A stretch of 33,792 nt of DNA from Promethearchaeota archaeon (GTDB lineage Archaea > Asgardarchaeota > Hermodarchaeia > Hermodarchaeales > Hermodarchaeaceae). Of this stretch, positions 22,905 through 25,834 are shown one piece after another. The stretch's first letter is position 1. The number at the start of each line of letters is the position of its first letter. The notes below the pieces were generated by a model, which was not told the origin of the DNA, made no database searches, and was given only the letters and a program-made list of their open reading frames with translations. The stretch lies in NCBI GenBank assembly GCA_048939245.1, contig JBHLPR010000024.1:1-33792 (forward strand). Reading direction: 5' to 3'. Made by a program: the position numbers and the translations under genes.

Positions 22905-23016
22905 GCAGGAAGATGTCTTAAAATCGATGGTTGTACCGAAAACTGAGTCAATCGAAGGTCATGGGTTTTTCCACTAACCACCTCGCTTTTAAACTGGATC
23001 CGTGCTATCTGTCGAT

Positions 23017-24534
23017 ATGTCCATTTATGACGAAATCATGGCAAAATATCGTGAAGTAACATTAGCCCAAACTATTTTCCATCTAATCAATTGGGATATG
23101 GATTGTTACATACCACCCAAAGGGTATGCCTTACGTGGTGAACAATTAGGCTTTCTTAGCAAGATGCGTCAACGACTCGTATCAAGCCCAGAATTGGGAA
23201 AATTACTCAAGAAAGCCGAATCGGAAAGTGAATTCAAGAAATACGATGAAATACAACGACGAAATATTCACCTGTTGCGACGCGAATATGACCTCATGGT
23301 AAAAGTTCCCGAGGAACTCACCGTAGCGATTGCTAAGCAACGAGCAAAAACCGATCAGACTTGGAAAAAAGCCAAAGCGAACAATGACTGGAAAAGCTTT
23401 CAGCCAGATCTCGAAGAACTCATTACACTCCTGTGGAAATATGGCGAAATCCTGATGGACGTTCGAAACACTCCCACCGTCTATGATGCGTTGATCGACC
23501 AATATGAACCACTGATGACCCAAGACAAGATCGCCAAGGTTTTCACAAAGCTTCGAAATGACCTCATCCCATTAGTCGATAAATATACAAAAGCAGCAGA
23601 ACACATGGATTTCTCGTTCATGAACCGTAAAGTAACTGTTGACCAACAACGGAAAATCTCAACTGCACTGTGTAACTTCGTCCAATATGACACCACCTCA
23701 GAGCAGGCTGGAGGGCGTATTGACGAAACCGAACACCCGTTTACAACGGGATATTACGATGATGTCAGGATAACTACTCATTACCACGAGGACAAATTCG
23801 CAGCCTCATTCTATTCAGTACTCCATGAAAGTGGTCATGCATTATATGAACAAAATTATCCACCCGAAGGAAAATTTCAACCCTGGGGCGACGCACCCAG
23901 TTATGGGGTGCACGAATCCCAGTCCCGATTTGTAGAAAATATGTTGGGTCGATCGAAGGAATTTATCACCTACTTCCTTCCGACCCTGAACAAACTAACC
24001 AATAATACTTTCAAAGACATCAGTGCCGACCAGATGACCAAAGCCGTCAATAAGGTTGAACGCTCAAAAATACGAATTGAAGCCGACGAAGTCACCTATT
24101 CTCTGCACATTATTATTCGCTTTGAGATTGAAAAAGACTTATTCGCAAACAAGATCGGAATCACAGATTTACCCAGTGTATGGAACGAGAAATACAAAGA
24201 GTATCTAGGCGTGGTTGTCAAAAACGATTCAGAAGGGGTCCTGCAGGATACCCATTGGGCTTCAGGCTATCATGGCTATTTCCCCAGTTATGCACTTGGG
24301 AACGTTTATGGTGGCCAATTTCTCACAACGATGGAAAAGACGCTCCCCAACTGGCTTGACCTCGTTGCTGATGGTAAATTTGGACCAATTAAACAATGGT
24401 TAGTGGATAATGTTCACCGGAAGGGCGACCTATACGATCCCGAAGACTTACTTTATCGTGTTACAGGGGAAAAACTCAATGCCCGACCCTTCATCCAGTA
24501 TCTTACAGGCAAATACAAGAGAATCTTTGGCTAA
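23017..24534 (+). CDS. M32 family carboxypeptidase (Taq/Pfu type)
   Basis: HPF, DVRITT, HESGHALYEQ, HESQS, IRIEADE, QDTHW, YFPSY. ATG at 23017 (track GTG 23002). Confidence 0.96.
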   Translation: MSIYDEIMAKYREVTLAQTIFHLINWDMDCYIPPKGYALRGEQLGFLSKMRQRLVSSPELGKLLKKAESESEFKKYDEIQRRNIHLLRREYDLMVKVPEELTVAIAKQRAKTDQTWKKAKANNDWKSFQPDLEELITLLWKYGEILMDVRNTPTVYDALIDQYEPLMTQDKIAKVFTKLRNDLIPLVDKYTKAAEHMDFSFMNRKVTVDQQRKISTALCNFVQYDTTSEQAGGRIDETEHPFTTGYYDDVRITTHYHEDKFAASFYSVLHESGHALYEQNYPPEGKFQPWGDAPSYGVHESQSRFVENMLGRSKEFITYFLPTLNKLTNNTFKDISADQMTKAVNKVERSKIRIEADEVTYSLHIIIRFEIEKDLFANKIGITDLPSVWNEKYKEYLGVVVKNDSEGVLQDTHWASGYHGYFPSYALGNVYGGQFLTTMEKTLPNWLDLVADGKFGPIKQWLVDNVHRKGDLYDPEDLLYRVTGEKLNARPFIQYLTGKYKRIFG

Positions 24535-24546
24535 GCTCTTTGTGAT

Positions 24547-24604
24547 AGAGAAAAGGAAAAGGGACCCGTGCTCAATGCCCGAGCCCCCAAGAGTTAGGAG
24601 CACG
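24547..24604 (-). terminator. Stem-loop CGTGCTC/GAGCACG followed by a pyrimidine/U tract on the minus strand
   Basis: 7-bp arms at 24567-24573 and 24598-24604; the minus strand continues CCCTTTTCCTTTTCTCT. Confidence 0.55.
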
Positions 24605-24626
24605 TTCAACCCACCCAGCAAACGTT

Positions 24627-24719
24627 TTAGTTACGACAAGCAAACCAGTAAAGATACTTGACGCGACGTGCCTGCCTTTGGGGGTTGTCCGCGCCATTGG
24701 AATAATGATATTTGTGCAT
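24627..24719 (-). CDS. Unannotated 30-aa small protein MHKYHYSNGADNPQRQARRVKYLYWFACRN
   Basis: Hand-translated. GGTGA RBS at 24728-24732 (8 nt spacing), TTATATAA at 24755-24762, downstream stem plus U-tract. Confidence 0.55.
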   Translation of the reverse strand: MHKYHYSNGADNPQRQARRVKYLYWFACRN

Positions 24720-24985
24720 TTTGTGTGTCACCAATGAAATCAAAAGATACCGCGTTATATAAGGCGGACTCACCATTTGGGCTCACTTTGAGAGGTCACC
24801 TGATGTTACTAACAGAAAGCACAATATTGTGGCTAAACCTGACTTAAAGAGCAGTCCGATTTTAACGTCACAGAAAAACTTACAAAAAAATCGATTTTTA
24901 CCTGTTCACTGGAGCTTTCTTAAGGGCAATTTTGTCAATGTTCATTTGGAGTAAGATAGTCAGTTGGTAGGGCTGGCGAAATAAA

Positions 24986-25834
24986 ATGATCCATCACGTC
25001 TTCATCATCGATGCACGAGAAATTATTGTAGTGCAGAAGAAATTCTGGATCATTGACATCGATCACAAGGAAATGAGACAATTTGCAGCGCGGGTTAAAG
25101 CAAACCAAGCACTCCTAATAGAACAAATCGGGACCACAAAATACATTGGACAACCACTCGGTCGTGGCGTTGTGATTCTTGGTGCCGAGAATGTGGATGA
25201 AGATACCACACTTCTTGAAAAAATTGATACAGTAACTTTCGAGTTCCGCCGGGTTATTAGTCATGAGGAAGACTTTGATGCCTTCATGCAAAAACTAGAC
25301 AGATATGTGACAACTAAATTGAAAGTTAGTCTATTAGGTTATGGAGGCGTCGGCAAAACCACTATCCTCCATCTCCTCAATGGCGGCAAAATGCCCCAAA
25401 CTTATATCCCAACAATTGGAATTGATATCCAGAAAGTAGAAGGGGCCCGAATTGGTACCTATGAGCTCCTTGTTTGGGATTTCGCTGGTCAAGAAAGGTT
25501 CCGAAAATTATGGAAGATGCTCTTTTCGCGGAGTCGCATCGTCTTTATTGTCACCGATTCCACTTTAGAAAATGTATTACAAAGTAAGGACATTCTCGAA
25601 TTCCTAAAAGAACAGGGCTTAACAAGCGATATCGTTGTTATTGCCAATAAACAGGATTTGACAGGGGCTCTTCAACCGGGTCTTGTTCAACGCCTGTTGG
25701 GAGTGAAGGCATTTGGTCTCACTGCTATTGATCCTAATGACCGAGAAAAAGCGTTGGACATCATTCGAATAAGCTTGGAACGTACGATAGATTGGGGTAG
25801 GATGGAAATCGAAACCGTTGATTTTCTTCCATAA
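24986..25834 (+). CDS. Small GTPase (Ras/Arf/Rab-like) fused to an N-terminal longin-like domain
   Basis: G1 GYGGVGKTT, G2 PTIG, G3 WDFAGQ, G4 NKQD, G5-like TAI; N-terminal 'MIHHVFIID' domain of about 110 aa. Confidence 0.9.
   Translation: MIHHVFIIDAREIIVVQKKFWIIDIDHKEMRQFAARVKANQALLIEQIGTTKYIGQPLGRGVVILGAENVDEDTTLLEKIDTVTFEFRRVISHEEDFDAFMQKLDRYVTTKLKVSLLGYGGVGKTTILHLLNGGKMPQTYIPTIGIDIQKVEGARIGTYELLVWDFAGQERFRKLWKMLFSRSRIVFIVTDSTLENVLQSKDILEFLKEQGLTSDIVVIANKQDLTGALQPGLVQRLLGVKAFGLTAIDPNDREKALDIIRISLERTIDWGRMEIETVDFLP

Follow-up and report, generated by a model that had tools for sequence, protein, structure and literature searches.

The minus strand of the window, by which we mean the whole stretch of 33,792 nucleotides analysed here from a Promethearchaeota archaeon of the Hermodarchaeales, bears at 24811-24546 a small-gene unit flanked by M32 and GTPase genes. 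Judged from sequence comparison and folding models, it is on a modest balance of probability an autonomous small-peptide gene whose mRNA carries a translation-sensitive RNA switch of three helices, behind an operator-bearing promoter shared with other genes, and found only in Hermodarchaeales. The region appears to be one member of a family of autonomous units of ~180 nt each, for which transcription is predicted; by comparison across genomes the family is a new one, of gene and RNA alike, and confined to Hermodarchaeales. The whole evidence base for the micro-gene and its switch is comparative and thermodynamic. The unit lies between a convergent M32 carboxypeptidase gene (23002-24534, plus strand) and a divergent Arf/Roc-type GTPase gene (24986-25834, plus strand), and comprises the following elements:

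24795-24810, minus strand: operator-like palindrome AGTAACATCAGGTGAC (family consensus AGTCACAnnnTGTGAC), kept in all copies and forming the 5' edge of the conserved unit.
24766-24786, minus strand: two direct GTGAG half-site-like repeats, GTGAGCCC and GTGAGTCC, with 13 nt spacing, immediately upstream of the TATA box.
24750-24767, minus strand: TATA box TTATATAA (24762-24755) within CCGCC/CGCGG flanks; the copies keep CCGCC-TTWWATAA.
24728-24732, minus strand: Shine-Dalgarno-like GGTGA, 8 nt upstream of the ATG; its G, G, T and G are invariant in alignment A2 (see below).
24627-24719, minus strand: 30-codon ORF plus TAA (ATG at 24719, TAA at 24629-24627), with product MHKYHYSNGADNPQRQARRVKYLYWFACRN.
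24683-24695, minus strand: region 1, the 5' arm of helix C (GGCGCG..CAACC), within codons 9-13.
24598-24611, minus strand: region 2, the 3' arm of helix C (GGUUG..CGUGCU), which includes the box CGUGCUC (24604-24598) that is also the 5' arm of helix A.
24580-24588, minus strand: 5' arm of the terminator-like hairpin B, GGGGGCUCG, from the RNAalifold consensus.
24567-24573, minus strand: region 3, the 3' arm of helix A (GAGCACG), in the apical and 3' part of hairpin B.
24547-24568, minus strand: 3' arm of hairpin B, CGGGUCCCU (24568-24560), then the U/C-rich tract UUUUCCUUUUCUCU (24560-24547).

These include every element of the complete minus-strand unit that the first-pass annotation had described (a palindrome-wrapped TATA box, a GGTGA ribosome-binding site, a 30-aa ORF, and a stem followed by a U-tract); the palindrome about the TATA box, CCGCC-TTATATAA-CGCGG at 24767-24750, is an imperfect one, the stem pairs 24588-24580 with 24568-24560, and the unit proves to be multi-copy. 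Because the usual archaeal spacing from TATA box to start is ~26 nt, transcription of the window copy would begin near 24732. A scan for sigma-70 promoters and simple terminators did not call hairpin B and is uninformative for an archaeon. The Shine-Dalgarno/start region (24712-24731) also forms a 20-nt inverted repeat, 75% complementary, with 24805-24824 just upstream of the operator, and this upstream arm probably lies outside the transcript.

One to three copies of the unit occur in 17 of 19 Hermodarchaeales genomes. The conserved stretch is 265 nt long and has copies in 16 of the 18 other genomes of the family; searched as 24811-24546, it gave one to four matches per genome in 13 of 14 further members of the genus, while three of the four sister-genus genomes had weaker ones. 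A covariance model of the 3' element (R1) was run on the 19 genomes of the order and on 132 genomes of the phylum's other families: the unit is absent from the latter by this model, and in the 17 positive genomes of the order R1 matches always coincide with small-ORF units. Within the window genome, the 3' element is present at its two units and nowhere else. Pattern scans for family members, built on the promoter block (GTGAG repeats), gave matches confined to MAGs labelled Hermodarchaeota/Hermodarchaeum, or generically Promethearchaeota, Thorarchaeota or uncultured archaeon, and to 17 metagenome contigs. The second copy in the window genome (C36:17739-18002, 78% identity) has TTG in place of ATG, with ORF (LHKYHYPQAANRTQMQAKVVKYLHWFACRN), promoter and 3' element otherwise kept. 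At another locus (L018, G007:C82) the promoter block and Shine-Dalgarno sequence are intact, but they precede a different 39-aa ORF with no recognisable 3' element, and this may be a decayed or re-purposed unit.

Two syntenic settings were found. In one, which includes the window, a GTPase gene diverges from the unit and an M32 gene converges on it; in the other, a 2-hydroxyacid dehydrogenase gene diverges and a zinc-finger GNAT gene lies further downstream in the direction of the unit. Sister-genus units have unrelated neighbour genes. A convergent gene (M32 or a 241-aa gene) follows ~12 copies at 12-56 nt beyond the U tract, and a co-directional GNAT gene follows others at 49-373 nt; by eye, the alignment shows what looks like a separate TATA-like box for the GNAT gene. 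No consistent same-strand downstream gene was found across the copies and genera compared. The 241-aa gene (L005:732-1457, L011:773-1498), which converges on the unit in several GNAT-type loci, weakly matches ATG17-like and BORCS8 profiles below threshold and probably encodes a coiled-coil protein, and the GNAT acetyltransferase (L004:2340-2954, L007:2096-2719, L008:765-1418) has a weak N-terminal HIT/B-box-like zinc-finger signal below Pfam cut-offs. A mobile element or MITE was considered and rejected, given the two syntenic locus types, conservation that ends at the operator and the U tract, and the lack of terminal repeats. Peptide modification of the RiPP kind, to which carboxypeptidase and GNAT neighbours might have pointed, was also rejected: the link is synteny within one genus, and the sister-genus neighbours differ. 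About nine of roughly 35 copies lie less than 500 bp from a contig end (G000:C36, G003:C59, G005:C222, G006:C14, G006:C34, G014:C34, G015:C212, G004:C48 and G016:C257), and two contigs break inside or at the unit. Apart from the unit and ~45 nt of sequence next to the promoter, no repeat was found that these contig-end copies share; the metagenome assemblies probably break at the promoter and 3' modules, which are near-identical between copies.

By its pattern of substitution the 30-codon ORF is coding, because its indels are in frame and three residues stay invariant despite synonymous codon changes. It is open in 30 of 30 copies, at 28-30 codons with start and stop aligned, and its length differences are whole codons; the same span in the other two frames is open in 14 and 4 of the 26 distinct main-genus coding sequences. 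For closely related pairs pN/pS is ~0.2-0.3. Phe(-5), Cys(-3) and Arg(-2) are invariant in the 26 sequences and give the peptide a C-terminal F-x-C-R-x motif, the Cys being encoded by TGT (10) or TGC (16), the Arg by CGT (6), CGC (15) or CGA (5), and the Leu/Ile at -8 by nine different codons. An upstream in-frame GTG is excluded as the start since the copies have 2-nt indels in the spacer from GGTGA to ATG. The peptide is basic and hydrophilic (six Lys/Arg, two His, no hydrophobic stretch), and an AF2 (AlphaFold) model of modest confidence (pLDDT 69) has a single helix at residues 7-29. It has no Pfam match. An exhaustive profile search of 1.84 billion representative proteins returned two relatives (P0001, P0002), both family members, and a word-index protein search returned one match, again a family member. 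Codons 4-7 hold scattered Tyr, Asn and His that vary between subfamilies, and no run of regulatory codons for a sensed amino acid was found within or just before region 1. The sister-genus peptide has a different C-terminus. A selected peptide with conserved residues before the stop, as the alignment indicates, would fit a functional micro-protein or a regulatory nascent peptide alike.

Helices were counted on alignments A1 and A2, the latter of 27 copies of the whole mRNA. The order of ORF, terminator-like hairpin and U/C tract is kept in 29 copies, across which the 3' element is conserved in sequence as well as structure. Hairpin B (GGGGCUCG/CGGGUCCC plus two inner pairs) pairs in 98.3% of cells, with G-U swapping with A-U or G-C. 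Its stem has G-U at two positions in most copies and hence works only as minus-strand RNA, as had been claimed from the window alone. Helix C joins codons 9-13 (GGCGCG..CAAGG) to the 3'UTR (CCUUG..CGUGCC), in the window 24695-24683 to 24611-24599. It pairs in 90.2% of cells, with changes on both sides in 7 of 11 pairs; none of 500 shuffles did as well, and slid pairings reached at most 51%, a control inflated by RNAalifold having proposed the helix on the same alignment. At least five lineage versions of its inner part stay complementary (CAAGG/CCUUG, CAUGA/UCAUG, CAACC/GGUUG, CAGGG/CCUG-type and AUGGCUC/GAGUCGU).

In helix A the partner of the box CGUGCCC(A) is (U)GGGCACG, from the upper 3' half of hairpin B (window 24604-24598 with 24573-24567). 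In this case 94% of cells pair, double changes occur at five pairs and 0 of 500 shuffles are as good, with no excess over shuffles in the 'further pair types' measure (101/500). The sequence is nearly invariant, with about three independent compensations: in the window lineage, where a U-A pair stands for the C-G of other copies; in L021; and at the eighth pair, which alternates between A-U, U-A and G-U. At least six of the eight positions pair in 26 of 27 copies. Helices A and C compete for one box, CGUGCC(C). Helix A also overlaps the 3' arm of hairpin B by two nucleotides, with the 5' arm of hairpin B in its loop; a pseudoknot of A and B was considered and rejected, as zero nucleotides would separate the two 3' arms and such a geometry is sterically implausible. 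Given the shared box and the abutting arms, helix A would exclude both C and B. The sister genus has a helix-C analogue in its MFE folds, in which no analogue of helix A was found.

Folding models behaved in line with this arrangement in many copies, though not in the window copy. In the partition function of the free mRNA, a probability above 0.5 was reached by helix C in 18, hairpin B in 23 and helix A in 2 of 27 copies. When the ORF plus 10 nt was held single-stranded to mimic a ribosome, A exceeded 0.5 in 12 and B in 5 of the 27, the mean for B falling from 0.83 to 0.24 and that for A rising from 0.04 to 0.44. When the 3'UTR is folded by itself, states A and B differ by no more than ~3 kcal/mol in most main-genus copies, and in transcripts ending just before the 3' arm of hairpin B the MFE has at least six of the seven helix A pairs in 18 of 29 copies. 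The window copy has a stronger hairpin B, which stays at 0.95 with the ORF blocked, so the switch is weakest there.

The first-pass annotation had proposed a different competitor of the terminator stem, a ~127-nt hairpin pairing 24666-24699 with 24573-24605. Its inverted blocks (CCCCCAA/TTGGGGG and GCACGT/ACGTGC) are indeed there in the window copy. In L094, the closest relative, the outer helix carries a single compensatory substitution (CAAUG/CAUUG to CAACG/CGUUG), although the GCACGU arm has been lost. Across the 27 copies, however, the fraction of paired cells is 49.9%, compared with 48.8% for shuffles and 48.6-51.5% for versions shifted by +1 or +2, and its 7-bp CCCCCAA/UUGGGGG core pairs in 31% of cells (A2, 18 pairs tested). 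Even in the window copy it lies at -43.6 kcal/mol against an MFE of -58.8, that is 15 kcal/mol above, with a pair probability of 0.00. Hence, we give it almost no credence as a selected structure. What holds of the proposal is that coding and terminator folds exclude each other, an exclusion conserved among copies; the helices it named are copy-specific, and the conserved ones are C and A, of which C makes use of the ACGUGC box that the proposed hairpin also used. Measured against shuffles, folding of the 221-nt region is modestly more stable on the minus strand (z = -2.0, 8/200), whereas the plus strand shows no such advantage (z = +0.27). No Rfam family matched the window at gathering thresholds (best sub-threshold E values 0.59 or worse, with scores well short of the thresholds), and no tRNA or tmRNA genes were found.

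Set together, these elements would work as follows. An archaeal promoter, with the upstream palindrome and GTGAG repeats as an operator shared with a few other genes, would drive a short Shine-Dalgarno-led leader and the 28-30-codon ORF, encoding a basic, probably helical peptide that ends in F-x-C-R-x; the 3'UTR would then offer one box, CGUGCC(C), to two conserved partners. With the box paired back into codons 9-13 (helix C), hairpin B and the U/C tract would be intact, and with the box paired forward to GGGCACG (helix A) hairpin B could not coexist. Untranslated RNA would take the C plus B fold. A ribosome on the ORF would block helix C and free the box for helix A, and the terminator-like hairpin would be weakened. 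Candidate outputs are read-through into neighbour genes, which at the window locus might possibly give antisense RNA to the M32 gene, or the fate and stability of the mRNA's own 3' end. The archaeal RNA polymerases characterised to date need no hairpin to terminate at oligo-U; for this reason, hairpin-dependent attenuation may not apply here and the output could be either read-through or mRNA stability and 3'-end state.

Of the functions offered at first pass, an attenuator-like, translation-coupled switch has the logic that fits best, through other helices than those proposed. In its full form, with a leader- or arrest-peptide attenuator in which the ribosome on the 30-codon ORF decides the terminator hairpin and sets read-through into the neighbours, antisense to M32 included, with a regulon under an ArsR-type repressor that has the operator in common with it, and as the first such system described in Archaea, we consider it doubtful. 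We know of no archaeal leader-peptide attenuator, and a literature search found no description of this micro-gene family or of leader-peptide attenuation in archaea. The sequences would thus suggest a variant of the attenuator-type switch in a domain without described examples, to our knowledge.

Bacterial leader-peptide attenuators (trpL, pheL, hisL, ilv/leu) likewise place a GC-rich hairpin and a U-rich tract behind a short Shine-Dalgarno-led ORF, and have one segment with two partners, in the ORF (1:2) and in the terminator hairpin (2:3), 3:4 being the terminator. With partners so placed, formation of the terminator (3:4) can depend on where the ribosome stands. The micro-gene differs in its Asgard archaeal host, in having no run of regulatory codons and a peptide whose own sequence is selected, in lacking a consistent downstream operon of regulated structural genes, and in matching no Rfam leader family. 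Moreover, region 2 begins ~17 nt past the stop codon, so that a terminating ribosome would not cover it, and the predicted logic, in which translation disfavours the hairpin, is nearer to pyrBI-type coupling than to trp-type attenuators. Like the arrest peptides TnaC and the fungal arginine attenuator peptide (AAP), the product is 24-30 aa, about the length of the exit tunnel, with strictly conserved residues in the last 5-7 positions before the stop and a variable N-terminal part overlapping an RNA helix. The profile search revealed no homology to arrest peptides of the TnaC/SecM/AAP type, having returned family members only, and the C-terminus differs in the sister genus. Hairpin B shares with intrinsic (Rho-independent) and archaeal oligo-U terminators a GC-rich stem of 8-9 bp directly followed by a pyrimidine/U tract; unlike them, its stem is almost invariant across paralogs with diverged ORFs, its 12-nt loop contains inner pairs, and C residues break up its short U runs.

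The main competitor of the switch is a plain small-protein gene, in which the 30-aa peptide is the sole functional product, C and B compact, stabilise and terminate the mRNA, and the complementarity of helix A follows from similarity between region 1 and the top of the hairpin. Strong amino-acid-level selection on the C-terminal motif is what such a gene would show, and it would account for the dominance of B with the ORF blocked in the window copy and several others, for the little variation in helix A and for its absence from the sister genus. It does not account for the 7-8-nt match to the box that main-genus copies keep (26 of 27 pairing at six or more of eight positions), nor for the compensated changes in the window lineage and L021 and the switching eighth pair. 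The near-isoenergetic A and B states of most copies once the ORF is excluded would be unexpected if helix A were accidental, and the 3' element is conserved in sequence far beyond what a terminator needs. On this evidence a plain gene is a lesser possibility, albeit one to be taken seriously.

That same sequence conservation of the 3' element (GGGGCUCGGGC..GGGCACGGGUCCC), in a unit that stands alone without an operon, would also suit a dual-function or trans-acting RNA, with the element as a protein-binding or target-pairing module and the transcript acting as both sRNA and mRNA. Bacteria provide a precedent for sRNAs that derive from attenuators and have functional leader peptides (PMC7298713, PMC7968998): rnTrpL/peTrpL of Sinorhizobium meliloti is likewise an independent small transcript with attenuator-type folds and a functional tiny peptide, although that peptide is of 14 aa with Trp codons and there is no sequence relationship to ours. 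Complementary 11-13-mers elsewhere in the window genome are chance-level, one-mismatch matches, however, and no Rfam family matches, which leaves this reading unlikely. Two others had been put forward at first pass, a type I toxin-like self-silenced mRNA and a structured ncRNA with an incidental ORF. A small ORF within a structured RNA, beside a convergent neighbour that could supply antisense transcription, might invite either. A basic, hydrophilic peptide with no hydrophobic segment, predicted as a soluble-type single helix, does not resemble such toxins, protein-level selection on the ORF and its residues argues against an incidental one, and the predicted folds leave open the A-rich stretch that holds the Shine-Dalgarno sequence and start codon; both readings are highly improbable. 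The translation-sensitive switch therewith remains our preferred reading.

The promoter block, most conserved of all and upstream of the ORF, consists of tAGTCACAnnnTGTGACC, then GTGAGCCC, 5 nt, GTGAGTCCGCC and then TTWWATAA, and its GTGAG-repeat segment is the best-conserved block of the alignment. The full block (palindrome, GTGAG repeats and GTCCGCC-TATA) also stands upstream of bactofilin-like and MFS-like genes in the window genome and others. In the window genome these encode a 397-aa bactofilin-domain protein and a 523-aa MFS-like membrane protein (C94:1514-2707 and C23:14607-16178, both minus strand, in G000; further block-bearing loci are L027, L030, L045, L051, L057 and L063). The palindrome without the rest of the block precedes TrmO-like, DinB-like and ArsR-type genes. 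The upstream palindrome and GTGAG repeats are thus best read as a putative operator common to a few other genes, and the micro-genes together with the bactofilin-like, MFS-like, TrmO-like and DinB-like genes look like a small regulon. A gene for an ArsR/HTH_20-type regulator is present in 19 of 19 family genomes (window genome C28:57133-57669, L095; orthologs L096-L110), with a conserved palindrome, TTACTCACAnnnTGTGACTAAC, ~23 nt before its TATA-like box and a second one, GTCACTAACAnnTAGTGAGT, downstream. From this arrangement we infer that the small-ORF promoters may be regulated by the ArsR-type protein, which would also control its own gene.

Asgard annotations miss small genes of this kind: two of ~30 copies are present among the 1.84 billion proteins. 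The family offers a compact test case for whether in Archaea, as in bacterial attenuators, the position of a ribosome can direct how a transcript folds and how its 3' end is formed, and the shared operator, with a conserved ArsR-type gene that carries it, points to a testable small regulon of micro-genes, a bactofilin-like protein and an MFS-like transporter. If the attenuator reading is true, the position of an Asgard ribosome would set a terminator hairpin and hence read-through and antisense RNA to the M32 gene.
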